This document shows, one piece after another, positions 1 through 50,665 of a DNA stretch of 64,000 bases. Origin of the DNA: Mobula hypostoma (Eukaryota); assembly GCF_963921235.1 (NCBI RefSeq), contig NC_086107.1, forward strand, positions 106,890,001-106,954,000, written 5' to 3'. The notes beneath the pieces were generated by a model. That model was not told where the DNA came from. It ran no database searches and worked only from the letters and a program-made list of their open reading frames with translations. How positions within the stretch are numbered: position 1 is the first letter of the stretch; every line of letters begins with the position of its first letter. The position numbers were made by a program, and so were the translations under genes.

Positions 1-519
1 CCTCAACCACTTCTTCTGGCAGCTGATTCCTCATGGATATCATCCTTTGAGCTGGAAATGTCGCCCCTCAAGTTCCTCCTAGATCTTTCTTCAAGACCAT
101 TAGACATGGTCAGCCGAAGGGCCGGTTTCCATGTGGTATAACTTGATGACTCCAAATCAGATAGAGTCATAGAGTTATACTGCTTAGTATCAGGCCTTCG
201 GCCGACCATGTCAGTGGTGACCATGTCTTATGGTGCTGAAGAAACATATAGGAGGAACTTGAGGGGCAATTTTTTTTTTTTTGACACAAAGGATGGTATC
301 TAGATGCAATCAGCTGCCGGAAGAAGTGGTTGAGTCAGGTATAAGAATGACATTTTAAAAGACACTGGGCAGATAGAGAGACTGGAAAGATTTATAAGGG
401 TTATGAGTCAAACATTGGCAAATGGGACTGACTTGGATAGGACATCTTGGTTTGGACCAGTTGGGCCAAAGAGGCCTGTTTCCATGCGGTATAATTATGA
501 CGCCTGAGGATAAAAAGCA

Positions 520-12237: not shown

Positions 12238-15200
12238 TACTGTGGATTCCGGTTAATTGGGGCACATTGGAATCAGTATATTCTGGCCCAATTATGCGGC
12301 TGCTCCAATTAGCTGATGTTTCATGGAAAGAAAGGTATAAAAAAGACAAACTACCTTCTAACCGGGTAACAAATTATGTATGTAAGTGAAATACAGAACA
12401 AATTAGAACACAATTAATACTATTACAGTACTATAAACATAGAAACATAGAAAATAGGTGCAGGAGTAGGCCATTCGGCCCTTCGAGCCTGCACCGCCAT
12501 TTATTATGATCATGGCTGATCCTCCAACTCAGAACCCCGCCCCAGCCTTCCCTCCATACCCCCTGACCCCCGTAGCCACAAGGGCCATATCTAACTCCCT
12601 CTTAAATATAGCCAATGAACTGGCCTCAACTGTTTCCTGTGGCAGAGAATTCCACAGATTCACCACTCTCTGTGTGAAGAAATTTTTCCTAATCTCGGTC
12701 CTAAAAGGCTTCCCCTCTATCCTCAAACTGTGGCCCCTCGTTCTGGACTTCCCCAACATCGGGAACAATCTTCCTGCATCTAGCCTGTCCAATCCCTTTA
12801 GGATCTTATACGTTTCAATCAGATCCCCCCTCAATCTTCTAAATTCCAACGAGTACAAGCCCAGTTCATCCAGTCTTTCTTCATATGAAAGTCCTGCTAT
12901 CCCAGAAATCAATCTGGTGAACCTTCTTTGTACTCCCTCTATGGCAAGGATGTCTTTCCTCAGATTAGGGGACCAAAACTGCACACAATACTCCAGGTGT
13001 GGTCTCACCAAGGCCTTGTACAACTGCAGTAGTACCTCCCTGCTCCTGTACTCGAATCCTCTCGCTATAAATGCCAGCATACCATTCACCTTTTTCACCG
13101 CCTGCTGTACCTGCATGCCCACTTTCAATGACTGGTGTATAATGACACCCAGGTCTCATTGCACCTCCCCTTTTCCTAATCGGCCACCATTCAGATAATA
13201 ATCTGTTTTCCTATTTTTGCCACCAAAGTGGATAACTTCACATTTATCCACATTAAATTGCATCTGCCATGAATTTGCCTACTCACCCATCCTATCCAAG
13301 TCACCCTGCATCCTCTTAGCATCCTCCTCACTGCTAACACTGCCACCCAGCTTCGTGTCATCTGCAAACTTGGAGATGCTGCATTTAATTCCCTCATCCA
13401 AGTCATTAATATATATTGTAAACAACTGGGGTCCCAGCACTGAGCCTTGCGGTACCCCACTAGTCACTGCCTGCCATTCTGAAAAGGTCCCCTTTATTCC
13501 CACTCTTTGCTTCCTGTCTGCTAACCAATTCTCCACCCACACCAATACCTTACCCCCAATACTGTGTGCTTTAAGTTTGCACACTAATCTCCTGTGTGGG
13601 ACCTTGTCAAAAGTCTTTTGAAAATCCAAATATACCACATCCACTGGTTCTCCCCTATCCACTCTACTAGTTACATCCTCAAAAAATTCTATGAGATTCG
13701 TCAGACATGATTTTCCTTTCACAAATCCATGCTGACTTTGTCCGATCATTTCACCGCTTTCCAAATGTGCTGTTATCACATCCTTGATAACTGACTCCAG
13801 CAGTTTCCCCACCACCGACGTTAGGCTAACCGGTCTATAATTCCCTGGTTTCTCTCTCCCTCCTTTTTTAAAAAATGGAGTTACATTAGCCACCCTCCAA
13901 TCCTCAGGAACTAGTCCAGAATCTAATGAGTTTTGAAAAATTATCACTAATGCATCCACTATTTCTTGGGCTACTTCCTTAAGCACTCTAGGATGCAGAC
14001 CATCTGGCCCTGGGGATTTATCTGCCTTCAGTCCCTTCAATTTACCTAACACCACTTCCCTACTAACATGTATTTCGCTCAGTTCCTCCATCCCACTGGA
14101 CCCTCTGTCCCCTACTATTTCTGGAAGATTATTTATGTCCTCCTTAGTGAAGACAGAACCAAAGTAATTATTCAATTGGTCTGCCATGTCCTTGCTCCCC
14201 ATAATCAATTCACCTGTTTCTGTCTGCAGGGGACCTACATTTGTCTTTACCAGTCTTTTCCTTTTTACATATCTATAAAAGCTTTTACAGTCCGTTTTTA
14301 TGTTCCCTGCCAGTTTTCTCTCATAATCTTTTTTCCCCTTCCTAATTAAGCCCTTTGTCCTCCTCTGCTGAACTCTGAATTTCTCCCAGTCCTCAGGTGA
14401 GCCACTTTCTCTGGCTAATTTGTATGCTTCTTCTTTGGAATTGATACTATCCCTAATTTCTCTTGTCAGCCACGGGTGCACTACCTTCCTTGATTTATTC
14501 TTTTGCCAAACTGGGATGAACAATTGTTGTAGTTCATCCATGCAACCTTTAAATGCTTGCCATTGCATATCCACCGTCAATCCTTTAAGTGTCATTTGCT
14601 AGTCTATCTTAGCTAATTCACGTCTCATACCTTCAAAGTTACCCCTCTTTAGGTTCAGAACCTTTGTTTCTGAATTAACTATGTCACTCTCCATCTTAAT
14701 GAAGAATTCCACCATATTATGGTCACTCTTACCCAAGGGGCTTCTCACGACAAGATCGCTAATTAACCCTTCCTCATTGCTCAAAACCCAGTCCAGAATA
14801 GCCTGCTCTCTAGTTGGTTCCTCGACATGTTGGTTCAAAAAACCATCCCGCATACATTCCAAGAAATCCTCTTCCTCAGCACCTTTACCAATTTGGTTCA
14901 CCCAATCTACATGTAGATTGAAGTCACCCATTATAACTGCTGTTCCTTTATTGCACACATTTCTAATTTCCTGTTTAATACCATCTCCGACCTCACTACT
15001 ACTGTTAGGTGGCCTGTACACAACTCCCACCAGCGTCTTCTGCCCCTTAGTGTTACGCAGCTCTACCCATATCGATTCCACATCTTCCCGGCTTATGTCC
15101 TTCCTTTCTATTGCGTTAATCTCTCCTTTAACCAGCAACGCCACCCTACCTCCCCTTCCTTCATGTCTATCCTTCCTGAATATTGAATATCCCTGAACGT

Positions 15201-15926
15201 TGAGCTCCCATCCCTGGTCACCCTGGAGCCACGTCTCTGTGATCCCAACTATATCATAATCATTAATAACAATCCGCACTTTCAATTCATCCACCTTATT
15301 ACCTATAAAGCTGTGTATTAATTCCTGATAATTATCAACAGAGAAATTCATCTGTTGCGTTCTTTTGATTGAGTGTAAATGAACAAAATCAGTGTAGACA
15401 TCTAGTGCAGGAAATGGACTGCCTTTATATAATTATATTGATGATTGCATCCTCCTAATCTTCATTTTCATTGTAACATTCAAGATGATTGTCGATACCT
15501 TCAGATATTCCATAGTTCCTAACTTGTTGAAGTAGTGAAGTTGCTACGTCTTCACTCCCATTCATTTTAAGCTTCTCCAGGCCTGAAATGCTTGAAGCTG
15601 CAGTGAGCAGAACAGTTCTGAATTGTCTTACTGTTTATTTCTCCCCTACCTTTGGTGATAAAAATAACTGCATTTTGAATAGTAATATGTACGTCTAACG
15701 CTATTTAAAAACCATTTGCTCTACACACTGGGTAGTGTCTAAGAGCTGCACGAGTGCATGCGTCTAACGCTAGTTGGAAGCTGTTCGACAACAATCTCCT
15801 GCCCCAATTAAGCAGCATTGTGTCCCTAATAAACAAAGGGAATCCCAGCTATTTTCTCAATTGTCTTTTGTTCTTTAAGAGTTGTCCCAATTAACCAACA
15901 GCCCAATTAATCACAATCCATTGTAT
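12238..15926. mobile_element. Tigger-like DNA transposon remnant split by a CR1 insertion
   Basis: Degenerate TIRs ta-ctgtggattccggttaattgggg (12238) and gcccaattaatcacaatccattg-ta (to 15926). Confidence 0.65.
12438..15302 (-). mobile_element. Young 5'-truncated CR1 LINE, ORF2 (APE + RT) with in-frame stops
   Basis: Collinear ORFs 14599-15351, 13279-14595 and 12529-13128 (ITETWL, GDFN, QGSVLGP, FADDTK). (TTCTATGT)n 3' tail. 7-bp TSD CTATAAA at 12431-37 and 15303-09. Confidence 0.97.
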
Positions 15927-26282: not shown

Positions 26283-27298
26283 GACTTTATACTTTATTGT
26301 CGCCAGACAATTGATACTAGACCGTACAATCATCACAGCGATATTTGATTCTGCTCTTCATGCTCCTTGGAGTACAAATCGATAGTAAATGCTAAAAATT
26401 TAAATTATAAGTCATAAATAGAAAATAGGAAAGGGAAAGTAAGGTAGTGCAAAAAAACCGAGAGGCAGGTCCAGATATTTGGAGAGTACGGCCCAGATCC
26501 GGGTCAGGATCCGTTCAGCAGTCTTATCACAGTTGGAAAGAAGCTGATCCCAAATCTGGCCGTACGAGTCTTCAAGCTCCTGAGCCTTCTCCCGGAGGGA
26601 AGAGGGACGAAAAGTGTGTTGGCTGGGTGGGTCGTGTCCTTGATTATCCTTGCAGCACTGCTCCGACAGCATGCGGTGTAAAGTGAGTCCATGGACGGAA
26701 GATTGGTTTGTGTGATGTGCTGCGCTGTGTTCACGATCTTCTGCAGCTTCTTCTGGTCTTGGACAGGACAACTTCCATACCAGGTTGTGATGCACCCCAG
26801 AAGAATGCTTTCTACGGTGCATCTATAAAAATTAGTGAGGGTTTTATAGGACAGGCCAAATTTCCTTAGCTTCCTCAGGAAGTAAAGGCGCTGGTGGGCC
26901 TTCTTGGCAGTGAACTCTGCTTGGTTGGACCAAGTCAGATCATTTGTGATATTGACCCCGAGGAACCTAAAGCTTTTGACCTGTTCCACTAGCGCACCAC
27001 CGATGTAAATGGAGTCGTGTGGTCCGCTACTCCTTCTGAAGTCAGCAACCAATTCCTTCGTCTTGCTGACGTTAAGGAATAGGTTATTGTCTTCGCACTA
27101 TGCCACCAGGTTCTCTGTACTCAAACTCATCATTACCCGAGATACGGCCTACAATTGTTGTGTCATCAGCAAACTTATATATTGAGTTTGATGGAAACTT
27201 GGCTACACAATCACGGTGTAAAGTGAGTACAGCAGGGGGCTGAGTACACAGCCTTGTGGGGCACCGGTGCTCAGAGTGATTGTAGAGGAGAGTTTGAT
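26283..27298 (-). mobile_element. Young Rex/Babar-type LINE 3' portion (RT C-terminus)
   Basis: ORFs 27084-27323 (KFADDTTIVGRI) and 26504-27052 (FRFLGVNI...KKAHQRLYFLRKL...SFFPTVIRLLN). AATAAA followed by a short tail. Confidence 0.92.
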
Positions 27299-27404
27299 GG
27301 ATGACATATTTTTTGTTGACCACTTAATTTAACCCGAATTTAGCTTAGGTTATACTGCCTCAAGACTGTATGTTTTACTAGTTGCTAATAAAGGATCGAG
27401 TATG

Positions 27405-27880
27405 TATGGGGTGTATGGGGTGTCCAGGGAGGGGCAGCAGCTCTGGTGGCAGGCTTGCCCAGGGGCAGCTTGTCACCTTTGGTCCCCACCTGCCACTCAG
27501 CTCTCACCTGTCTGCACGCGGTAGCCGCCACACCCCGGTACGCCACTTCGACAGGCAGGCTAAACCAGGTGAGAGTAGCCGGGAACCTCCAACCCCAGTG
27601 AGATAGGGCCTCGCCAGCCCCAGCAGGCGAAGCCAGTTCCGGCGGACTGGGCGGATGAGATCCAACGGCCGAGAAGCCGGTTCTGCAACACTGCGTGGAG
27701 CACGAATGGCGTAATGAGGCACTGAAGGCATCGTGGCTATCCACTGCAGCCAAGCAATCTCCAGTCCTGACGATTTTTCGTAGCATGGACCAAGATTTTT
27801 GAGGCTAACTGCCCCAGTGCAATGGCTTTTTTCACTATAAAACTCCTCCCGCACAAGTTACGTTGTCGTCGGAGACAAAG
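27405..27880 (+). mobile_element. RTE-like short element, family A (second copy 32095-32450)
   Basis: Two similar copies. 5' end folds as an HDV-like ribozyme (see findings). Confidence 0.65.
27417..27575 (+). ncRNA. HDV-like ribozyme fold, probably inactivated by an internal deletion
   Basis: P1 GGGGTGT (27417-23) / ACACCCC (27530-36), then GG. P2 CTCTCACCTG (27501-10) / CAGGTGAGAG (27566-75). J4/2 gCTAAac. Confidence 0.65.
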
Positions 27881-27889
27881 GACAACCAA

Positions 27890-28120
27890 TACACAATAAA
27901 GGCTCGAGTGCAGTTTGGGTTTGGGTATTTGATCCTCCACAGTATTCCGCGTGGGAATTTAAACTGGAGGTGGCAGTGTTTTTTTACACGAAGTTGAGTT
28001 GCGAGCTCGACATCAACCCGGCACGGATGGAGAGCGCGCTCGGGAGCGGTCTGTCACTGGATCGAACTCGGGAATCTCCGTTCTCGAGCCTGGCGCTGAT
28101 CTCACTGCGCCACCAGCCGA
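27890..28120 (-). mobile_element. Young tRNA-derived SINE
   Basis: Reverse strand: ggctggTGGCGCAGTGAGatcagc... and GAGTTCGATCC (A and B boxes). CpGs retained. Confidence 0.75.
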
Positions 28121-28419
28121 CCTAGGGTAAGTTCCCAGACAAAGGGTAAGTTCCTCGACTTCTGGAACTTTATTATTGGGGTGATCGGAGGGCGCGTCAG
28201 ACAAGTATAACAACCCGTGAGGGCCTGTACTGTTCTATATTCTGTGTCCCATCCATAATTATTTATCACATGTACATATGTGAGATGTGAAATGTATTGT
28301 TTGCAATAACAGCTGAGTATGTGCCGAAAGTGTTGTCACACGTCCTGGCGCCAACATAGCGTGCCCACAATGCTTGGCAGAGCAAAACAAGACATACCAA
28401 GCAACAAATCAACAGCACG

Positions 28420-29465
28420 ATCCAGAATCAGAATCAGGTTTAAGGTCACTGGCATACTGTATGTCGTGAAGTTTGTTGTTTTGTGGCAGCGGTCTATTGC
28501 AATACACGGTAATAAAAACTATGAGTTACAGTAAGAAGTATATAAAAACAAATTAAATTAAATAAACAGTCTAAAAAGAGAGGTAAAAATAGTGAGGTTG
28601 TAATCATGGGATCATTGACCATTCAGAAATCTGATGGTGGAGGGGAAGAAGCTTTTCCTGAAACATTAAGTGTGTGTCTTCAAGCTCCTGTACCTCCTCT
28701 TAGATAGATAGGTAGATAGATACTTTATTGATCCCAAAGGAAATTCCAGTGTCGCAGTAGCATTACAAGGGCACAGATGTATAAACATACAAATATAAAT
28801 ATGAGAAGAGAAATAAAAGGGTATATCCTGGGCGATGGGGGTCCTTAATGACGGATGCCCCCTTCTCGAGACATCGCCATTTGAAGATGTGCTGGGTGCC
28901 GGGGAGGCTGGTGCCCATGATGGAGCTGGCCGAGTTTACAACTTTCTGCAACTTTTTTCCCAACCCTGTGCAGTCTCCCTCCCCGCCCCCATATCAGACG
29001 ACGATGCAACCAGTCAGAATGCTCTCCACGGTGCACCGGCAGAAACTTGCGAGTGTCTGGTGACACACCAATTCTCATCAAACTCCTAATGAAATATAAC
29101 TGCTGTTCGTGCCTCCTTTGTAATTGCATCAATATGTTGGGCCCAGGATAGACCCTCAGAGATGTTGACACCCAGGGACTTGAAACTGCCCACCCTCTCC
29201 ACTGCTGACCCCTCGATGAGGTTTGGTGTGTGTTCCCTGGACTCCCCCTTCCTGAAATCCACACTCGATTCCTTGGTCTCACTGACGTTGAGTGAAAGAT
29301 TGTTGATGCGACACCACTCAACCAGCTGATCTATCTCGCCCCTGTACGCCTCCTTGTCACTATCTGAAATTCTCCCACCGATAGTTAGGTCTTCAGTAAA
29401 TTTATAGATGGCATTTGAGCCTAGCCACACCATCGTGGGTGTACAGAGAGCAGAGCAGTAATTCT
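28420..29465 (-). mobile_element. Rex/Babar-type LINE fragment(s)
   Basis: ORF 29086-29478: IYKFTEDLTIGGRI...WCRINNLSLNVSETKE...FKSLGVNI. (TGATTC)n tail. Confidence 0.85.
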
Positions 29466-29594
29466 CCCTCCTTCCCACCCATTCACCTACGTCTATGTGC
29501 AGTTCTCTGACCCCAGGTTCTATGTTCTAGTTACACATGTCCTCGCTTCCTTCAGCTCTTAAGCTTTTAACATCCCGGAAACATCTTCGTTTTA

Positions 29595-29985
29595 AACATG
29601 AGAAAGTCTGCAGAGGCTGTAAATCCAAAGCAGCACATGAAACTCTAGGGGAAACCAGCAGTTCAGGCAGCATCTATGGAAGAGAGTAAACAGTCGATGT
29701 TTCAGGCTGAGACCCTTCATCAGCACTGAGAAGGGGGGCGGGGAGATGCAAGAATAAAAAGGTGGGGGGTGGGGTTGGAGGCTAGCTGGCAGGTGATAGG
29801 TGAAGCCAGGTAGGAGAGAAAGGTCAAGGGCTGGAGAAGAAGGAACGTGATAGGAGAGGAGAGTGGACAATAGGAGAATGGGAAGGAGGAGGGGACCCAG
29901 GGGGAAGTTATAGGCAGGCGAGAAGAAATATAAGATCAGGGATTATGGGGTGGGGGCGGATTTTGTTCACTGGAAGGAGACAATA
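29595..29985 (-). mobile_element. PLE 3' end with hammerhead motif (29691-29728)
   Basis: Reverse strand: cagtg CTGATGA agggtctcagcct GAAA caTC gactg. Confidence 0.75.
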
Positions 29986-30594
29986 TGCGCTCCCTTAATT
30001 TTTGACCCTTTGCTCATCCCCATTTTCTGTAGCTTGCCATGAGCAGTTAGTCTTAGGAACATAGGAACAGGCCCTTTGGCCGATCCTGTCTGTGCTGACC
30101 CTCTACACTGACTCCATTCGCCCGCATTAGTATTGTGCTATTTTATGCCTTCCTAGCCCTAAAAAATCCCTCTTAAATGTATTTATCGTGTCGGATTCCA
30201 CCACCGCAGCATCTGGCAATGCAATCCAGATATTGAACTCTCTCAGAGTAAAAAAACTTACCCATTAGTTCCCGTTTAAAACTCCTGCCTTGAACCCCAG
30301 CTGTGCGGCTTTTGATTTAGCTACCACGAGAGAAAAGCGATTGATTATCCCCTCTATATTTGCCTCTCACTGAACTCTGAACCTCTCCAGTTTTAAGTCC
30401 AAACTCTTAAAGGTGAAACTCTGCTCCTCTAAGTCGGCCTTTAGAGCCTCCTTCCCTCAGCCAGGCTTCTGGCCACCCTCCCATGGTCTTGTTGTGGGAG
30501 GAGGATCGGGTTGCCACTTCAGTGGCCTGGCAAGGGAATCCAGACTGGCACTCCAATGCAGTACTGAGAGAGTGCCACACTGTTAGACGTGGCA

Positions 30595-31170
30595 TTGTTA
30601 TACCCAGGGTGGTAATGGGGACGAGCTCCCACCACCTATTGAATAGTCCCAATGGTGTGCACCTCAAACAGCCTCAGACAACCAAGTCCAGCTCCTGGAC
30701 TTCACGTGTGGCTTAGCTACTAAGCCTGGCTGAACCGTTTCTACTGACAGGAGAAGGGGCAAAGGCGGCTTACTGGCACCTCAAAACCAGTCACTTCAGC
30801 CTGATGCCAGACACGGTTGGCAGCTCATCTAGGGGAAGGATAACTCTGATCTCAAACCTCTGCTGCCTTGTGCATGTACCCACTCGTGGGGAAGGTAACA
30901 CCCGAGGGAAAAATCCGGAACAGGAGTCCCTAAGGCAGTCCTGCTTTGAGTTCAAACCTGACTGGCAGCTCCTGGTGCCAAACTGTATCGGTTTCTGCCG
31001 TTCATTTGGGTTCTTCAGAAGCATGGAGAGGGGGAGCCTGCAGCACGGGCAACAGCTTGGTCTCCATATCGTACTACCCTGGCCTGAGTATCCAGACAGC
31101 GAGGTGCAACGTCCATCGATCAGGGTTCCATGGTTGACCTTGATCGACAGAGGCCTCATCGTCATGTCGT
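30595..31170 (+). mobile_element. RTE-like short element, family B (second copy on - at 41320-42100)
   Basis: Two similar copies in opposite orientation, with an HDV-like 5' fold candidate. Confidence 0.7.
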
Positions 31171-32449
31171 TCAGAGCAAGTGTTAATCTAAGGCTCTCTC
31201 AGGCACTTTTCCCATTATTTTACAGAAAACTGGGACATTCTCCCTTGTATACGGGACTCGTAGCATTTAGATCAAAGAACATAGAATTTAGAACATAGAG
31301 CAATACAGCACAGGAATAGGCCCTTTGACACACAGTGTTATACAAACTAATTAAACTAGTAATTAAACGCCTAACTAAACTAATCCCAATGTTCTTGTCT
31401 CTACATTCTCTGCATATTCCTACCCGAATCAGAATCAGAATCGGGTTTAATATCACCGGCATGCGTCCTGAAACTTATTGTGATGCGCAGTTGTACAACA
31501 CAATTCATAATAATAAACATTGTGAATGATAGTAAGTAATAAAAAAGTTAAATTCAATAAGTAGCACAAAAAACGTAGTGAAGTGGCGTTAATGGGTTCA
31601 ATGTCCATTCAGAACACTCCTTCTACTACCCATTGTGCTTTCCCCTGTTCCTTCTTCACCTTTCCTGCCTATCTGTCCAATTTATTCTTAAACGTTAAAA
31701 AAAAAATCCTGTGCAGTAGCTCCCCACCCCCATATCAGATGGTGATGCAGCCAGTTAGAATGCTCTCCACAGTACAACTGTTGAAATTTGTGAGTGTCTT
31801 TGGTGACGTAACAAATCTCCTCAAACTCCAAATGAAATATAGCCACACTCACAACACGCTGGAGGAACTCAGCAGGTCGGGCAGCATCCGTTGACGTTTT
31901 GGGCCGAAACCCTTCGTCAGGACTGAAGAGGGAAGGGGCGGAGGCTCTATAAAGAAGGTGGGGGGAGGGTGGGAAGGAGAAGGCTGGTAGGTTCCAGGTG
32001 AAAAAGTATTATTTCCATACAAGTATGTTTTTCTCTGAGGTGAAAAAGTTTCTCTGAGGTGAAAAGTAAGTTTTTCTCTCAGGTGCAGGGTAAATGGGGC
32101 ATATGTGACGTCTAGGGAGGGGTAACACCTCTGGCGAGGGCTTGTTGTGTCCATTCTGGGGCATCTCACTCACCAGTGGCTCCAAGTAGCTGTTTGCATG
32201 GGACAGCAGCCACACCTTGGTACACAGTGGGCTGAACCAGGTGAGGGAGGCCGGAGGCCTCATATCCCCGTGAGGTAGCTATATGCCTGTCCTAGCATGT
32301 GAAGTCAGCTCTGGTGGATTGGGCTGATGAGATCAGCAGTGAGACCCAATGCCAGGAAGGTGGTTCTGCAATGCTCTGTGGAAGATCAATGATATGACAA
32401 GGATCAGAAGGAGTCATGGCCATCCACTGCAACCACGGAAGACCCCAGT

Positions 32450-32875
32450 GTATCCTGGAATGCAGGGGTTAACAGATGAGGAGCTTTTGGCAGCTTTGGG
32501 CCTGTACGCACTGGAATTTAGAAGAATGCGTGGGGATCTCACCGAAACCTGCTGAGTGTTGATAGGGAGGATGTAGAGAGGATGTCTCCTATGGTTTGGG
32601 TGTTCAGAACTAGAGGGCACAGCCTCAAAGTTGAGGGGCGACCCTTTAGAACAGAGTTAAGGAGGATCTTTTTTTTAGCCAGATAGTGGAATGTTCTGCC
32701 ACACAGACAACGGTGGAGGCCGTATATTTAAAGTGAAAATTGGTAGTTTCCTGATTGGTCAGGGCATCAAAAGTTATGGCGAGAAGACAGGAGTGGGATC
32801 CAGGATCAGCCATGATGGGATGGCAGAGCAGATTCGATGGGCTGAAGGGCCTAATTCTAATTCTGTGTTTTAAGG
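32450..32875 (+). mobile_element. CR1 3' fragment
   Basis: LGLYALEFRRMRGDL followed by the CR1 tail. Confidence 0.85.
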
Positions 32876-35275
32876 ACTACTTGTACCACTGGGCCCGGAC
32901 TTCCGAAGTCAAGAGAGTGGAATTGCCCCAGAGCAACGGTTTAACCTCTTTAAAAACTCTCTCGCACAGGTCTCCGGTCACTGTTGGATAGGATGGACAA
33001 CCAACAGCAGCCCAAATATTTAGCTCGACCATTGCTGCTGGATTGTGTTTTGATATTTCACCCCATTAACAAGCTGGCTGTTGTCACAGAATTACTTGAT
33101 CAAAGTTATTTGCATCTTAAGAATCGACATCTAGGAGAGATGCCAAGGAAACCTTGGAGGCTTTTAGAAACCAGAGGAGACCGTGACGAGAGACCTAGGC
33201 GTGGATGGTAAGGACCCCAAGTGCTGGAGTATCTGAGGCTAGAATCAAGCCACAATTTTGGGACCGAGACGAGAACAGGGTGCTAGACGTCAACCTGACG
33301 AGACTAGACGAGAACCTGAATGGGACCGAAATCCTAAACGCAATCGCAGACTGAACCAAAGCTCAGCTGACAATTGAGCCCCAAAACTGAGTTCAGGTGC
33401 TCCTTAAATATCCAAATCTTGGTGCCAAAACATGGCCGCCAATTAGCGTTGCGGGCCAGAATCTTTAAAGGGACCACGCTGGCTATCCGTACTCCGGAGA
33501 ATCAGAGTCTAAACCTCGAGGTGGCATGGTGGGGTGTGTACCGTAACGGAGATAATCCCCTCCCTCAATTCCCATCAACCATCACTTTTCCTCTCAGTGT
33601 TGAAGAGAAAGATGTAAGAGACCCCGAATGACTGAGAGACATATCCCAGGGTCTTCAACAAAATAAATATTCTTGTTCATAAAGCCTTTCAAATGATTTT
33701 TAAAAAAATACTGAAAGGAGAGTTGGGTTATAAATAGCCTGAAGCCAAGGCCATAGGTTGATTTTATTTTTTGTCTTTCAATTCCTTTGCTGTGTCACAG
33801 AACAAAGCAATATACTGTACAGCATCTGGTGTGCGGCAGGGAGCCTGTGTCACTGGCTCGGTGTTAAACAGCAGTCTCGTGTTTAAAGCGAATGCCCCAT
33901 TGCGTTTCTCTTTATCAGTGTTAACCTCAAACCCTGAACTGGAGGGAGACCCTGCGGTCAAACCATGTGGTGGCAGTTCACCGAGGCAGTGAGCAACGGA
34001 GAGCTTGGGACGAGGGGGTCAGCTGCGTGTCTGCCCTGTCTTCATTGCTGATGCTGGCCATTAGCTCCCAGATTTTTAACATCCTCAGGTGTGGGCTGAG
34101 GCTCGGGGGTTTATACTCTTTAGCCTCCCCGGCATTAGGCTGTGGATTTGAGTTCAATTCTCAAAGGCAAATGTCAGTGATCACCACTTCCCACACAGTA
34201 CTCATCATCATCATTATGTGCCGTATTGTATGACATCATCATTATGTGCCGTGTCGTATAACGTGGGCGATCGTGGTCTTTCATGGTCTTATAAGGCTTG
34301 ATCAAATAGTTACTTGGTGTATTGGGTTAGAGTAAAACAATAATAATGCAGATCGTCATTGTTATGTGTCGTGTTGTATGACATCATCATTCTGTGTTGT
34401 ATTGTATGACATCATCATTCTGTGCCGTATTGTATGACATCATCATTATGTACTGTGTTGTATGATTGGGCAATCATGGTCTTTCCATCACCATGATTTT
34501 TCTACAGAAGTGGTTTGCCATTGCCTTCTTCTGGGCAGTGTCTTTACAAGACAGGTGACCTTGGCCATTATCAATACTCTTCAGAGATTGTCTGCCTGGC
34601 GTCAGTGGTCACATAACCAGGACTTGTGATATGCACCAGCTGCTCATACGACCATCCACCACCTGCTCCCATGACTTCACATGACCCTGATCGGGTGGGG
34701 TGGGGGGCAAAGCAGGTTGTTTATTGGTGGGTCTTCAGGTGGCTGTAGAGGCTGATCGAGGATCCACATCTGGAAGCACAGTTCCAATTCCGTATTCAGT
34801 TTTGCTGATGACATCACTGTTGTAGTCGAAATCAAAGGTGGTGATGAATCAGCTTATAGGAGGGAGATTGAAAATCTCACTGAACAGCGCCAGAACAACA
34901 ACCTCTCACTCAATGTCAGCAAGACCAAGGAGCTGATTATTGAGTTCAGGAGGAGGAAACCAGGAACAAAATTGGTATGGAAACAGCAACAAAGAACCTA
35001 GAGTAAATGGTCACAGTCCGCCCCCCCCCTCCCCCGCCCCACAGCACCCCACTAGGGCACAGGGCATTTAAAACCAGAGGGCATGGATTTAAGGACGGAG
35101 GAGATAATTTAAAGGAGATGTGAGGGGCAACTCCTCCATGGAGAATGTGGTGTGTCTGTGGATCAAGCTGCCAGGGGCAGGGGCCGGGGCCGGAAAGTGG
35201 TAGGGGGTGGGACAGCTACAGTTACAATGTTTAAAAGGCGATGAGATGGATACCTGGACAGGAAAGATCTAGAAC

Positions 35276-36180: not shown

Positions 36181-36764
36181 GTATTTGTTACATGTACATA
36201 GAAACATCAAAACATGCAGTGAAACGCACCCTTCCGCAGCAATGTGGCATGCCCACAGTCTACTAACCCTTACTGTGTGTCTTTGGAATGTGGGAGGAAA
36301 CCGCGGCACCCAGGAGAAACCCACTTAGCTACGGGGAGAAGGTATGAATTCCTTATGGACAGCGGTGGGAATTGAACCCTGATCGCCAACTCCGTAAAGC
36401 GTTATGCAAGAGAAGCCGGGGACGGGAGGGGAGTTCCCATGGTCCTGAAAGTGATGTGGAGAGCACTAACGTTCAGTTGTTAATCATTTGAGAGCCTGGG
36501 TAGGTTGTTACGTCCTGTAATGTCAAGGCATTAAATGAATTCAACAGAAGACAAGGAAATCTAAAATGCGGGTCTCAGTTCAAACTTACTTTAAGTGAGG
36601 TGCACAGGTATCACGTGCTAAGGTGATGATGTAAGCAATTCCTGTATTTATACATATAACAGGCAATGAATAATTTAAATGAACAAGAATGCTTAATCAG
36701 CTACATATATACCATTATATGACCCTGAGATTTGTCTGCTTACAGGCAGCCACAAAGCAGAAAA

Positions 36765-37245
36765 CCCATTGGAGAGGGTACAGAGAAGATTCACGAGAGT
36801 GATTCCAGGAATGAAAGGGTTACCGTACGAGGAACGTCTGGCAGCGCTTGGGCTGTATTCCCTGGAGTTCAGGAGAATGAGAGGGGGATCTTGTAGAAGC
36901 ATTCTGAATGTTAAAAGGCCTAAACAGATTAGATATGGAAAGTTATTTCCCATGGTAGGGGAGTCTAGGACAAGAGGTCACAACTTCAGGATTGAAGAAC
37001 GTCCATTTCGAACAGACATACAGAGAAATTTCTTTTGCCCGAGTGGCTGTGGAGGCCAAGTCATTGGGTACAGTTAAAGCAGAGATAGGTGGGTTCTTGA
37101 TTAGCCAGGGCATCAAAGGGTATGGGGAAAAGGCTGGGGAGCGGGGATGACTAGGAGAATTGGATCAGCCCATGATTGAATGGTGGAGCAGACTCGATGG
37201 GCTGAATGGCCTACTTCTGCTCCTATATGTTATGGTCTTATGGTC
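36765..37245 (+). mobile_element. CR1 3' fragment
   Basis: ORF 36769-37077: ERVQRRFTRVIPGMKGLPYEERL. Confidence 0.9.
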
Positions 37246-37970: not shown

Positions 37971-38435
37971 AGAGGGGGGGGAGAGAGAAAGACAGAGAGA
38001 ATGTGTGAATGAGTGAGAGTGAGAGAGAGAGTGTGCAAGTTTATGAGAGAGTAAGTGTGTGTGAGACAGTGTGATTGAGCGAGTGTGTGAGAGGGTGTGT
38101 GACAGTGCGTGTTTATTGGAGAGAGAGTGTGTGTGTGAGAAAGAATGTGCGAGTGAGAGAGAGAGAGAGTGTATGAGATGGAGTGTGTGCATCAGAGAGA
38201 GCGTGTATGCGTGGGAGAGTGTGTGTGTGAGACACTGCGTGAGAGAGAATGTGTGTGTGAGAGAGAGTGTGTGTGAGATAGCGTGTGTGAGAGAGAATGT
38301 TTGATTGAGAGAGAGTGTGAGGGTGTGTATGAGAGAGAGAATGACTGAGAGAGTGTGAGGGTGTGTGTGTGACAGCGAGAGAGTAAGACAGTGTTTGTGA
38401 GAGAGTGGGTGTGTGTTTGTGTGAGAGAGAGGGGG
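37915..38435. repeat. Compound (GT)n/(GA)n low-complexity tract
   Basis: Direct inspection. Confidence 0.95.
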
Positions 38436-48542: not shown

Positions 48543-50665
48543 AAAGGTTGCATGGATGAACTACAACAATTGTTCATCCCAGTTTGGCAAAAAAATAAAT
48601 CAAGGAAGGTAGTGCACCCGTGGCTGACAAGAGAAATTAGGGATAGTATCAATTCCAAAGAAGAAGCATACAAATTAGCCAGAGAAAGTGGCTCACCTGA
48701 GGACTGGGAGAAATTCAGAGTTCAGCAGAGGAGGACAAAGGGCTTAATTAGGAAGGGGAAAAGAGATTATGAGAGAAAACTGGCAGGGAACATAAAAACG
48801 GACTGTAAAAGCTTTTATAGATATGTAAAAAGGAAAAGACTGGTAAAGACAAATGTAGGTCCCCTGCAGACAGAAACAGGTGAATTGATTATGGGGAGCA
48901 AAGACATGGCAGACCAATTGAATAATTACTTTGGTTCTGTCTTCACTAAGGAGGACATAAATAATCTTCCAGAAATAGTAGGGGACAGAGGGTCCAGTGA
49001 GATGGAGGAACTGAGCGAAATACATGTTAGTAGGGAAGTGGTGTTAGGTAAATTGAAGGGATTGAAGGCAGATAAATCCCCAGGGCCAGATGGTCTGCAT
49101 CCTAGAGTGCTTAAGGAAGTAGCCCAAGAAATAGTGGATGCATTAGTGATAATTTTTCAAAACTCGTTAGATTCTGGACTAGTTCTTGAGGATTAGAGGG
49201 TGGCTAATGTAACTCCACTTTTTAAAAAAGGAGGGAGAGAGAAACCAGGGAATTATAGACCGGTTAGCCTAACGTCGGTGGTGGGGAAACTGCTGGAGTC
49301 AGTTATCAAGGATGTGATAACAGCACATTTGGAAAGCGGTGAAATGATCGGACAAAGTCAGCATGGATTTGTGAAAGGAAAATCATGTCTGACGAATCTC
49401 ATAGAATTTTTTGAGGATGTAACTAGTAGAGTGGATAGGGGAGAACCAGTGGATGTGGTATATTTGGATCTTCAAAAGGCTTTTGACAAGGTCCCACACA
49501 GGAGATTAGTGTGCAAACTTAAAGCACACGGTATTGGGGGTAAGGTATTGGTGTGGGTGGAGAATTGGTTAGCAGACAGGAAGCAAAGAGTGGGAATAAA
49601 CGGGACCTTTTCAGAATGGCAGGTGGTGACTAGTGGGGTACCGCAAGGCTCAGTGCTGGGACCCCAGTTGTTTACAATATATATTAATGACTTGGATGAG
49701 GGAATTAAATGCAGCATCTCCAAGTTTGCGGATGACACGAAGCTGGGTGGCAGTGTTAGCTGTGAGGAGGATGCTAAGAGGATGCAGGGTGACTTGGATA
49801 GGTTGGGTGAGTGGGCAAATTCATGGCAGATGCAATTTAATGTGGATAAATGTGAAGTTATCCACTTTGGTGGCAAAAATAGGAAAACAGATTATTATCT
49901 GAATGGTGGCCGATTAGGAAAAGAGGAGGTGCAATGAGACCTGGGTGTCATTATACACCAGTCATTGAAAGTGGGCATGCAGATACAGCAGGCGGTGAAA
50001 AAGGCGAATGGTATGCTGGCATTTATAGCGAGAGGATTCGAGTACAGGAGCAGGGAGGTACTACTGCAGTTGTACAAGGCCTTGGTGAGACCACACTTGG
50101 AGTATTGTGTGCAGTTTTGGTCCCCTAATCTGAGGAAAGACATCCTTGGCATAGAGGGAGTACAAAGAAGGTTCACCAGATTGATTCCTGGGATGGCAGG
50201 ACTTTCATATGAAGAAAGACTGGATGAACTGGGCTTGTACTCGTTGGAATTTAGAAGATTGAGGGGGGATCTGATTGAAACATATAAGATCCTAAAGGGA
50301 TTGGACAGGCTAGATGCAGGAAGATTGTTCCCCATGTTGGGGAAGTCCAGAACGAGGGGCCACAGTTTGAGGATAGAGGGGAAGCCTTTTAGAACCGAGA
50401 TTAGGAAAAACTTCTTCACACAGAGAGTGGTGAATCTGTGGAATTCTCTGCCACAGGAAACAGTTGAGGCCAGTTCATTGGCTATATTTAAGAGGGAGTT
50501 AGATATGGCCCTTATGGCTACGGGGGTCAGGGGGTATGGAGGGAAGGCTGGGGCGGGGTTCTGAGTTGGATGATCAGCCATGATCATAATAAATGGCGGT
50601 GCAGGCTCGAAGGGCCGAATGGCCTACTCCTGCACCTATTTTCTATGTTTCTATGTTTCTATGTT
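48543..50665 (+). mobile_element. Young 5'-truncated CR1 LINE, same subfamily as 12438-15302
   Basis: ORFs 48495-49196, 49200-49937 and 49965-50564 are nearly identical to the minus copy. (TTCTATGT)n tail. Possible TSD AGTTCA at 48525-30 and 50667-72. Confidence 0.97.

Follow-up and report, generated by a model that had tools for sequence, protein, structure and literature searches.

The first ~197 nucleotides of a non-autonomous retrotransposon family of Mobula hypostoma are predicted, with a probability of about 0.68, to encode an HDV-like self-cleaving ribozyme which differs from the usual HDV form by a rod of ~90 nt in J1/2, a 5-bp hairpin adjacent to L3 and a G-C pair at the cut site. 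Two old and damaged copies of the family, whose elements are ~535-563 nt long, are located in the window (the 64,000-nucleotide stretch of DNA analysed here; Table 1). The original prediction had pieced the fold together from these two copies, and all the parts it described are present in the sequence with offsets of at most one base. Furthermore, the whole motif is found intact in many young copies elsewhere in the genome. The head is probably a real HDV-like ribozyme for 5' processing and a new structural variant, with catalysis predicted from the sequence.

The family and its copies

A genome search for one 23-mer of the family gave 2293 exact matches, which corresponds to thousands of copies. 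With a divergence of only ~2 % in the youngest copies, the system may still be active; the two copies of the window are dead relics and share 77 % identity over ~420 nt. The majority sequences of five subfamilies, Y (young), N, M, O1 and O2, were compared. Copies of Y, M and O2 were chosen with an exact 23-mer spanning J4/2 and the 3' strand of P2; those of O1 and N as well as copy 2 were chosen independently. With a threshold of E ≤ 10, neither five copies nor the window region matched any tRNA, 5S, 7SL or snRNA family of Rfam, and the head appears unlike that of a classical SINE (tRNA, 5S, 7SL or snRNA head, internal pol III promoter).

Copy 1 lacks 10 nt of J1/2 and, between two CTGT words, another 16 nt. 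The latter gap had been proposed to be a deletion; it is real relative to 22 of the 26 aligned copies and looks recurrent, since the three copies with this gap share no further rare variant. In copy 2, P1 and the 5' strand of P2 are decayed, and portions of J1/2 and P4 are deleted.

Table 1 Positions of the family features in the window
Feature	Positions	Strand	Remarks
Copy 1, O1, full-length but decayed	27408-27894	+	nhmmer profile positions 2-535, E 5.8e-142
Copy 1, 5' target-site duplication AATAAAGGATCGAGT	27387-27401	.	recurs at 27895-27909, one mismatch
Copy 1, 3' target-site duplication	27895-27909	.	matches 27387-27401
Six additional bases ATGTAT, between duplication and element	27402-27407	+	resemble part of third 5' repeat unit GGGGTGTAT
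P1 5' strand, first GGGGTGT	27408-27414	+	complements 27530-27536; family 5' termini map to G27408
J1/2 domain, rod-like structured insert	27417-27500	+	helices 2-6, covariation in helices 5 and 6
P2 5' strand CTCTCACCTG	27501-27510	+	pairs with 27566-27575; identical in all five subfamily majorities
16-nt deletion site and L3 hairpin remnant	27510-27526	+	P3 5' strand, L3 and hairpin start gone
P3 3' strand GCC	27527-27529	+	
P1 3' strand ACACCCC	27530-27536	+	
GG for P1.1	27537-27538	+	directly after P1 3' strand
P4 hairpin, decayed in copy 1	27543-27558	+	family form CCGCUU-CGAC-AGGCGG; helix 11, compensatory changes among subfamilies
J4/2 GCTAAAC	27559-27565	+	candidate catalytic C at 27560
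P2 3' strand CAGGTGAGAG	27566-27575	+	pairs with 27501-27510
Copy 2, 5' part, O2	32096-32449	+	nhmmer positions 3-398, E 2.4e-67; covariance model R1 70 bits
Copy 2, P3 5' strand GGC	32178-32180	+	
Copy 2, L3 TCCAAGT	32181-32187	+	
Copy 2, hairpin GCTGT...ACAGC	32189-32207	+	
Copy 2, P3 3' strand GCC	32209-32211	+	
Copy 2, decayed P1 3' strand ACACCTT	32212-32218	+	
Copy 2, GG	32219-32220	+	
Copy 2, J4/2	32231-32237	+	
Copy 2, P2 3' strand CAGGTGAGGG	32238-32247	+	
Unrelated repeat interrupting copy 2	32450-32867	.	profile match broken at position 398; overlaps repeat families D3-D5, D9
Copy 2, 3' part, end GGACAACCAACA	32868-33006	+	nhmmer positions 398-535, E 2.3e-19

Fold of the 5' region

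The nested double pseudoknot of P1, P2, P3, P1.1 and P4 in the canonical HDV order can be formed by all five subfamily majorities. P1 comprises 7 bp (GGGGUGU/ACACCCC) starting at nucleotide 1 of the element and is followed by GG; P2 has 10 bp, P3 3 bp (GGC/GCC) and P4 6 bp. L3 reads UCCNNGU (UCCAAGU, UCCUCGU or UCCCCGU, depending on the subfamily) with U at position 1, CC at 2-3 and G at 6. Its CC could pair with the GG after P1, which is invariant in the majorities, to form P1.1. J4/2 is GCUAAAC in Y, M, O1 and O2 and GCCAAAC in N, the candidate catalytic C, at position 179 in Y, being followed by N-A-A; the invariance of J4/2 and of the P2 3' strand in Y, M and O2 is partly by construction, because the 23-mer used for selection covers both.

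L3 is not closed directly by the 3-bp P3 as in the usual HDV form. In all subfamilies, a hairpin of 5 bp with a loop of 7-9 nt, plus one G, is placed between nucleotide 8 of L3 and the 3' strand of P3. No precedent for this 21-nt segment inside L3 was found in the literature, which was counted against the HDV reading, as were the two additional nucleotides (AC) of J4/2 before P2. The J1/2 rod of ~90 nt opens with a second GGGGTGT unit (27417-27423) pairing with ...CCTGCCAC(T/C)C just 5' of P2, and both the centroid fold and the alignment fold show this unit in the closing helix of a structured J1/2 domain, next to P1 and P2. As the basal pair of P1, the Y, N and O1 majorities have G-C and those of O2 and M have G.U, the U of which lies at a CpG site and may be due to decay. 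In addition, position 6 of P1 is mismatched in a young sub-lineage with GGGGTAT, of which 7 copies were seen.

Conservation and covariation

No part of the element is conserved better across the five subfamilies than the core. Between Y and O1, P1 is identical at 7/7 positions, the core at 81/91 and J1/2 at 73/97, compared to 234/372 for the remainder of the element, and all ten core differences are either in unpaired variable positions or retain the pairing. The positions that define the HDV active site are all kept across subfamilies which are up to 37 % different elsewhere: U, CC and G of L3, GG after P1, C-N-A-A of J4/2, the 3-bp P3 and a P1 starting at nucleotide 1. Positions 4-5 of L3 vary (AA, UC or CC) while U, CC and G stay, and position 3 of J4/2 is either U or C.

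The hairpin next to L3, described before as an extra element of copy 2, turned out to be a conserved part of the fold, with compensatory changes among the subfamilies (A-U/G-C/G.U; closing pair A-U/G-C). Compensatory changes are also present in P4 (C-G/G-C, C-G/U-A and U.G/U-A/C-G), and the ~90-nt rod of J1/2 varies in the same manner. Among 26 real copies, 92.6 % of the cells are paired compared to 37-50 % with the partners slid, and 17 pairs change on both sides compared to 10.5 ± 1.8 in shuffles (reached by 0 of 500), although the relatedness of the subfamilies, from which the structure itself was derived, inflates these pair counts. P1, P1.1 and P3 can pair in the five majorities, as had been anticipated, and covariation is present in the hairpin, P4 and J1/2. 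P1, P2, P3 and P1.1 are without covariation support because they are invariant among the majorities, and a pair that never varies gives no information for or against pairing.

The 5' end of the element and the predicted cut

Among the 83 young copies, 57 possess the terminal motif and the remaining 26 are truncated, with the truncation points scattered; only one of the 83 begins near position 9-10. Of 30 full-length young copies with an intact 3' end, 28 possess a direct repeat of at least 6 nt, and in 21 the target-site duplication abuts G1 of the first GGGGTGT. The original prediction had P1 and the cut at G27417, in the second unit. From these termini we infer instead that the 5' end of the element RNA, and hence the predicted cut, is at the first unit, immediately 5' of G27408. 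The same 5' ends are expected from a transcription start. A search of the sequencing records gave no RNA run.

The partner LINE

A LINE of ~3505 nt (L032+L147, one copy examined) encodes Exo_endo_phos_2 (APE; E 3.7e-11) and RVT_1 (E 7.1e-30) and shares nt 2-269 with the short element at 96.6 % identity. The putative ribozyme fold is located at the extreme 5' end of this RT-encoding element. Its reading frame opens ~25 nt 3' of the fold and contains no in-frame ATG in the first 93 codons of the copy read. The C-terminal region is 42 % identical over 101 aa to CR1/L2-like LINE fragments of the window, and by its motifs we take the C-terminus to be CR1/L2-like. By this comparison, the short element is an internal-deletion derivative of the ~3.5-kb APE+RT LINE. 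The earlier description as a short non-autonomous family holds for the short element, but the same head is also carried by the LINE; a non-autonomous element and a LINE partner with a common head correspond to the setting known for HDV-like ribozymes, as had been supposed.

A mode of propagation can be proposed. The elements appear without a known promoter-type head, and cleavage of read-through or host co-transcripts by the ribozyme, directly 5' of G1, would give the RNA an exact 5' end. The trimmed RNA might then be mobilised in trans, being copied into new sites by the endonuclease and reverse transcriptase of the ~3.5-kb LINE with the same head, of which the short element (535-563 nt) would retain the ribozyme and the 3' recognition end.

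Descriptor and database searches

A relaxed HDV descriptor was written after the family had been seen, with room for 0-35 nt inserted in L3 and for a J1/2 up to 150 nt long. Its matches comprise 28 of the 83 young copies and one of the 17 old ones, and it had no match in 2 Mb of random sequence with the window composition or in 2 Mb with the head composition, which places the motif beyond chance. A search of this kind, tolerating an L3 insertion, had been suggested with the original prediction; it succeeds in young copies but matches neither damaged copy of the window. In intact copies, the descriptor finds two registers (start 10 in 23 copies, start 1 in 18). Searches of the window and of five copies that are intact or nearly so against the ribozyme families of Rfam 15, the HDV-type ones included, gave no match even with the threshold at E ≤ 10. 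Folds with such large inserts would be expected to escape these models. The folding energy of the 200-nt head is no better than that of shuffles (z -0.65), and from decayed copies RNAalifold retrieved P2 and J1/2 only in part.

Alternative explanations

The head could be a conserved structured 5' leader without self-cutting, whose HDV likeness is real but catalytically dead and which binds the element's protein as a platform, serves as an internal promoter or allows cap-independent translation of the LINE. This is unlikely, as mere protein binding would not require exactly those HDV positions that are all kept across subfamilies differing by up to 37 % elsewhere, and translation does not explain the conservation in the non-coding short element. 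Nevertheless, covariation confined to the peripheral helices (J1/2 rod, L3 hairpin, P4), the hairpin in the catalytic loop, the G-C pair at the cut site and the missing Rfam match are in line with such a leader, and transcription start can also yield a precise 5' end. A role in translation is suggested by the missing in-frame ATG in the first 93 codons of the one LINE copy, and IRES-like roles are ascribed to such folds in reviews (PMC6765202).

Quite improbable is an active ribozyme in the alternative register, with P1 from the second GGGGTGT (27417-27423) and a cut 5' of G27417. Both units are equally complementary to ACACCCC, both registers are found by the descriptor and the mismatch of the young sub-lineage affects the first unit only. 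However, a cut at G10 predicts starts at G10, whereas the first unit opens 57 of the 83 young copies and only one begins near 9-10, and in the centroid and alignment folds the partner of the second unit is the strand just 5' of P2. A chance look-alike in GC-rich repeat DNA, with the RNA being unconstrained, is very unlikely: the 4 Mb of random sequence contained no descriptor match, conservation within the element is highest in the core, three groups of helices show compensatory changes and P1 begins at the first base of the element. These points stand against the facts that a 10-bp helix taken by itself is no rarity in a GC-rich stretch of 200 bases, that the folding energy of the head is ordinary (z -0.65) and that the descriptor was written after the sequence was seen.

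Comparison with known systems

R2, RTE, Baggins and L1Tc as well as their non-autonomous derivatives carry HDV-like ribozymes at the 5' end (PMC6765202, PMC3774820). The R2 ribozymes studied by Eickbush and co-workers resemble the family in their position at the extreme 5' end of a non-LTR element, where they define the RNA 5' end, in a P1 of 6-7 bp tolerating mismatches at its top, in a very long J1/2, in variable P4 and J1/4 and in the conserved L3 U/C/C/G and catalytic C (PMC3774820). Active R2 ribozymes have J1/2 loops of 216-498 nt (silkmoths) and one or two mismatches at the top of P1 (PMC3774820); unlike in the family, no hairpin inside their L3 is described. R2 is specific for 28S rDNA and has another endonuclease, whereas the family is dispersed, with 6-15-bp duplications and an APE-type partner.

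Large HDV-like ribozymes gain activity from a structured J1/2 helix, with cleavage up to about 1000-fold faster in the mosquito drz-Agam-2, whose 'P1.2' is, as in the family, a helical domain of J1/2 from just after P1 to just before P2 (PMC4908430). Unlike in drz-Agam-2, the J1/2 of the family is a ~90-nt rod with several helices and repeats the P1 strand in tandem as its 5' strand; no sequence similarity to drz-Agam-2 was found, and RF01788 has no match in the family copies.

An autonomous element and a deletion derivative with the same 5' fold are also known from L1Tc/NARTc (Trypanosoma) and R2 with SIDE, where LINE and short derivative share a 5' HDV-like ribozyme (PMC3383444, PMC3414825). 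In contrast to L1Tc/NARTc, the host of the family is an animal with a 3.5-Gb genome, and the partner LINE is presumably CR1/L2-like at its C-terminus. RTE and Baggins are likewise promoter-less, single-ORF APE+RT elements of about 3 kb (Ruminski et al. 2011, as reviewed in PMC6765202), and according to this review they are processed from co-transcripts, with the fold possibly aiding the start of translation. The partner LINE may differ from them in the C-terminus, which looks CR1/L2-like by its motifs.

The genomic and antigenomic ribozymes of HDV have the same helix order, a 3-bp G/C P3, an L3 starting with UCC and with G at position 6, GG after P1 and GCUAA in J4/2. As in HDV, a G.U wobble is present at the base of P1 in CPEB3, and it may be a universal feature of the HDV-like family. 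The L3 of HDV has 7-8 nt and is closed directly by P3, whereas that of the family consists of 8 nt, the hairpin and a G; the J1/2 of HDV is short and its setting viral, compared to ~90 nt and a retrotransposon. A U-G pair exists within loop III of HDV (PMC3386971), and the G.U wobble at the base of its P1 (Chen et al. 2009, listed among the references of PMC13635239) differs from the G-C at the cut site of the family.

Somewhat more tentative than the ribozyme itself is a new HDV-like subclass, in which L3 would tolerate or use an inserted hairpin that creates a junction at the active site, the cut-site pair would be G-C, and a CR1/L2-like LINE as well as its abundant short derivative would be headed by the ribozyme; we put its chance a little below even. 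If true, ribozyme-processed retrotransposition would extend to a LINE group for which no report was found in the literature. In case of cleavage, an HDV active-site loop could carry a whole additional helix, which bears on engineering and on the search for such folds, as published descriptors and Rfam models miss the family. Thousands of self-cleaving RNA copies would then be present in an animal genome, each intragenic copy being a potential transcript-cutting site, and the five subfamilies with their intact, deleted and decayed members would provide a natural series for testing each peripheral part. Without cleavage, the family would have a well-conserved LINE/SINE leader closely mimicking the HDV core.

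Bases upstream of the element

The ATGTAT between duplication and element in copy 1 may originate from slippage of the reverse transcriptase. Additional bases upstream of the element occur likewise in L006.

Predicted fold of the head

The first ~197 nt of family A (the head) probably represent a structural variant of the HDV-like ribozymes that is functional in the young copies, judging from sequence comparison. The fold is listed in the numbering of the young subfamily Y, whose majority over positions 1–200 is identical to the intact young copy L095. All motifs on which the original prediction was built, from the 7-bp P1, P2 and J4/2 of copy 1 to the P3, L3 and extra hairpin of copy 2, were recovered in the window. 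In addition, copy 1 contains a further, identical GGGGTGT unit upstream.

Coordinates of the predicted fold, the element copies and neighbouring repeats (window positions unless marked Y, numbering of the young subfamily)
Feature	Position	Strand	Sequence or remark
P1	Y 1-7 with 149-155		GGGGUGU / ACACCCC
P1.1	Y G156, G157 with C120, C119		
J1/2	Y 8-103		rod-like domain
P2	Y 104-113 with 185-194		CUCUCACCUG / CAGGUGAGGG
Linker P2-P3	Y 114		U
P3	Y 115-117 with 146-148		GGC / GCC
L3	Y 118-124		UCCNNGU
Linker L3-hairpin	Y 125		A
L3 hairpin	Y 126-130 with 140-144		9-nt loop
Linker hairpin-P3 3' strand	Y 145		G
J1/4	Y 158-161		
P4	Y 162-167 with 172-177		loop CGAC
J4/2	Y 178-184		GCUAAAC
Copy 1	27408-27894		six extra bases ATGTAT at 5' junction
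Copy 1, target-site duplication	27387-27401 and 27895-27909		AATAAAGG(A/C)TCGAGT
Copy 1, further unit	27408-27414		GGGGTGT
Copy 1, P1 strings of the original prediction	27417-27423; 27530-27538		GGGGTGT; ACACCCC-GG
Copy 1, P2	27501-27510 with 27566-27575		CTCTCACCTG / CAGGTGAGAG
Copy 1, J4/2	27559-27565		GCTAAAC, C27560
Copy 2	32096-32449 + 32868-33006		broken by 418-nt foreign insertion
Copy 2, P3 and L3	32178-32187; 32209-32211		GGC/TCCAAGT; GCC
Copy 2, hairpin	32189-32207		GCTGT-TTGCATGGG-ACAGC
Copy 2, further string	32238-32247		CAGGTGAGGG
Insert in copy 2	32450-32867		~418 nt
Partner LINE, nearly full-length	L032:1-1700 + L147:1-2982; G000:C1:2866000-2872004	minus	~3.5 kb
LINE-like open frames	26504-27097	minus	
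	29086-29526	minus	
	34756-35001; 36697-37077		
Host repeat without insertion	12307-12437; 15359-15913		
Inverted pair	12432-14550; 48543-50661		2119 nt, 98 % complementary
Low-complexity tract	37995-38435		GT/GA-rich

The outer helix of the J1/2 rod is formed by the second GGGGUGUCAGG unit (11–20) and positions 92–101 shortly 5' of P2; the centroid fold of L095 and the alignment fold of the subfamily majorities each contain it. According to PMC4908430, a helix at exactly the same J1/2 position activates large mosquito HDV-like ribozymes, and active R2 ribozymes have J1/2 loops of 216–498 nt (PMC3774820). For the 26 decayed copies RNAalifold gave a weak fold of −10.87 kcal/mol. Within the window, the covariance model R1, built in this analysis, matches copies 1 and 2 and nothing else.

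Element copies and subfamilies

With copy 1 as query, 4493 first-look candidates were obtained in the window's own 3.48-Gb assembly; 39 other scored matches are 72–80 % identical to it. Homology between copies 1 and 2 extends well past the ends originally assumed (77 % over ~420 nt). Copies aligned with their flanks define a discrete unit of ~535 nt with target-site duplications. Its 3' end is constant and follows a terminal stem-loop; 5' truncation is occasional and a poly(A) is missing. The short non-autonomous family of the original prediction thus exists as a unit, but it does not stand alone, as a LINE of ~3505 nt has the same head.

A 23-mer covering J4/2 and the P2 3' strand, where the head ends, has 2293 exact occurrences in the genome versus 0 in a reversed control, and its first 100 places, on one contig, served as subfamily sample. 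Y accounts for 83 of them (563 nt, 1.8–9.3 % divergence from the Y majority) and old forms, 26–39 % from Y, for 17. A further genome search yielded 39 copies at 86–89 % identity, 15 of which were read. With these and the copy-1-like set, five subfamilies can be distinguished: Y, M (2 copies), N, the copy-1-like O1 and the copy-2-like O2. The window copies 1 and 2 are dead.

The 16-nt deletion of copy 1 was considered as mark of a mobile sub-lineage and rejected: its three carriers have 0 other rare variants in common and a mutual identity of 0.81–0.83, no closer than to other copies; the choice of copy 1 as query had enriched for such carriers. The insert in copy 2 is a member of another abundant repeat (families D3–D5 and D9 of the window), ending ...GGGCYGAAKGGCCTAATTCT.... 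Before the target-site duplication, the 3' tail of some Y copies (L039, L090, L093, L095, L106, L108 and others) is lengthened by ACA or AACC repeats, whose number varies. These tails resemble those left by LINE reverse transcriptases that copy a short terminal repeat several times over.

The element's 5' end

The terminal motif GGGGTGTATGGGGTGTC is found in 57/83 Y copies; truncation points of the other 26 are scattered without a second hot spot. A direct repeat of 6–14 nt (one mismatch allowed; some of the shortest may be chance) flanks 28 of 30 Y copies with both ends intact, and the gap between it and the first G downstream is 0 nt in 21 of them, 1 nt in six and 2 nt in one. From the terminal motif and the direct repeats it follows that the transposed RNA starts with the first G of the upstream unit, which in copy 1 places the 5' end at G27408 and not at G27417, next to which the cut had been predicted. 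Both units read GGGGTGCAT in M and some old copies have a partial third unit, a pattern that points to slippage at the RNA 5' end as the source of the tandem unit.

Comparative evidence and chance control

Identity between Y and O1 amounts to 7/7 in the 5' strand of P1, 81/91 in the core (P2 5' to P2 3'), 73/97 in J1/2 and 234/372 in the rest of the element. All ten core differences either retain pairing or fall on positions which are free in HDV-like ribozymes (L3 4–5, J1/4). Pairing is preserved by the changes A-U to G-C at the closing pair of the hairpin as well as C-G to G-C and U.G to U-A in P4. Subfamily N has additional P4 changes (C-G to U-A, U.G to C-G), a hairpin shorter by 1 nt with a different loop, and GCCAAAC as J4/2; in M, L3 reads UCCUCGU.

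In 26 real copies 92.6 % of the cells pair, versus 37–50 % with partners slid by 1–3 columns. Two-sided pair changes number 17 versus 10.5 ± 1.8 in shuffles (0/500 as high), and the covariation score is 0.188 versus 0.143 shuffled and 0.051–0.089 slid, in a set whose sequences are mutually related and from which the structure itself was derived. Covarying sites lie in helices 5 and 6 of J1/2, the L3 hairpin (GC 14, AU 6, GU 6) and P4 (CG 11/GC 8; CG 17/UA 6). P1, P2, P3 and P1.1 are invariant across the subfamily majorities, so that their support consists of conservation and complementarity. At J4/2 and the P2 3' strand the invariance is partly by construction, as the Y, M and O2 copies were picked by the 23-mer spanning both; O1, N and copy 2, picked otherwise, have the same letters there apart from a C for U in N and a G for A in copy 2.

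A loose HDV descriptor required a 7-bp P1 starting with G at most 150 nt upstream, L3 TCCNNGN, 0–35 extra nt before a 3-bp P3, GG after P1, and a 6-bp P2 preceded by C-N-A-A plus 0–3 nt. With the L3 insert allowed it matches 28/83 Y copies and 1/17 old copies, and it had 0 matches in the window and 0 in random sequence, of which 2 Mb had the composition of the window and 2 Mb that of the head. It is a weaker test because it was composed after the family was seen.

Parts of the young copy are present in 24 sequencing runs (10 organism codes, 12 studies), all contigs and none listed as RNA, with shares of sampled words of 0.12–0.73; near-identical copies may therefore exist in several species. 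RNA ends are not visible in contigs. Among the 40 differences listed between contigs of four runs and a young copy, with 50 more beyond the listing, 16 fall in the head: one in P1 (C155>U, pairing-compatible), two in P4 (166 and 174, partners absent from the listing) and none in P2, P3 or P1.1.

The autonomous partner

The ~3505-nt element, instead of the short form, occupies one of the 100 sampled places, L032 with its extension L147. Its nt 2–269 are 96.6 % identical to Y 4–271 and its last 275 nt 88.5 % to Y 267–561. Between shared head and tail lies a single long frame, interrupted in this copy by one stop and frameshifts, which encodes Exo_endo_phos_2 (E 3.7e-11) and RVT_1 (E 7.1e-30). 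It begins ~25 nt past the head, the first 93 codons of this one copy having no in-frame ATG. Since head and tail are common to both and the long frame lies between them in the LINE, family A is an internal-deletion derivative of a LINE with the same head.

Over 101 aa, the C-terminal region of the partner shares 42 % identity with a LINE fragment from the window, which we take from its motifs to be CR1/L2-like. Four open frames of the window, the compared fragment among them, have reverse-transcriptase-like and LINE C-terminal motifs and are taken as CR1/L2-like LINE fragments.

Fit to the HDV-like form

Several features argue against an HDV-like assignment. Rfam gave 0 matches in the whole window at gathering thresholds; at E ≤ 10 there were 7 weak matches in 26500–33500 and 7 in five copies, all to unrelated families and none to a ribozyme model. 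A hammerhead, to which the word CTGATGAG in copy 2 had pointed, was dropped because no Rfam hammerhead family matched 26500–33500 at E ≤ 10. A G-C pair at the cut site (Y, N, O1), the hairpin within L3 and two surplus bases in J4/2 fit the HDV-like form poorly, and the folding energy of the head is ordinary (z −0.65). In the genomic HDV ribozyme the final L3 nucleotide (U27) can be deleted with activity retained, which would make the end of L3 a plausible insert site. Position 6 of P1 is mismatched in one Y sub-lineage; 1–2 mismatches at the top of P1 are tolerated in R2 ribozymes (PMC3774820).

Proposed mechanism and novelty

What the copies display directly is anatomy; a cleavage step, co-transcription and mobilisation by the LINE in trans are proposed by analogy with known systems (review PMC6765202). 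LINE and short derivative would be transcribed within longer host transcripts, and the head would fold and cut 5' of G1. The LINE protein would use the freed RNA, with its 3' stem-loop and ACA/AACC tail, for target-primed reverse transcription, which would yield duplications of 6–15 bp. Such a role and setting are already known from R2, RTE, Baggins, L1Tc/NARTc and R2 SIDEs. A full-text literature search, beyond whose reach Ruminski et al. 2011 and Webb et al. 2009 lay, returned no HDV-like ribozyme with an L3 hairpin, in a CR1/L2-type LINE or in a vertebrate SINE-like family, and no case of thousands of copies in a vertebrate-type genome.

Other repeats

Three old element copies (L058, L088 and L114/L131:1600-2872) lie at the same site inside the same larger repeat of ~1.27 kb, and a duplication resembling TGC(T)CCATGT accompanies them. 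Their shared flanks were rejected as a longer element form in favour of a nested insertion amplified with its host repeat; this host repeat is also present in the window without the insertion. The inverted pair of the window represents two recent, oppositely oriented copies of one element. The low-complexity tract appeared as 18 overlapping 97-nt 'copies' in the repeat scan.
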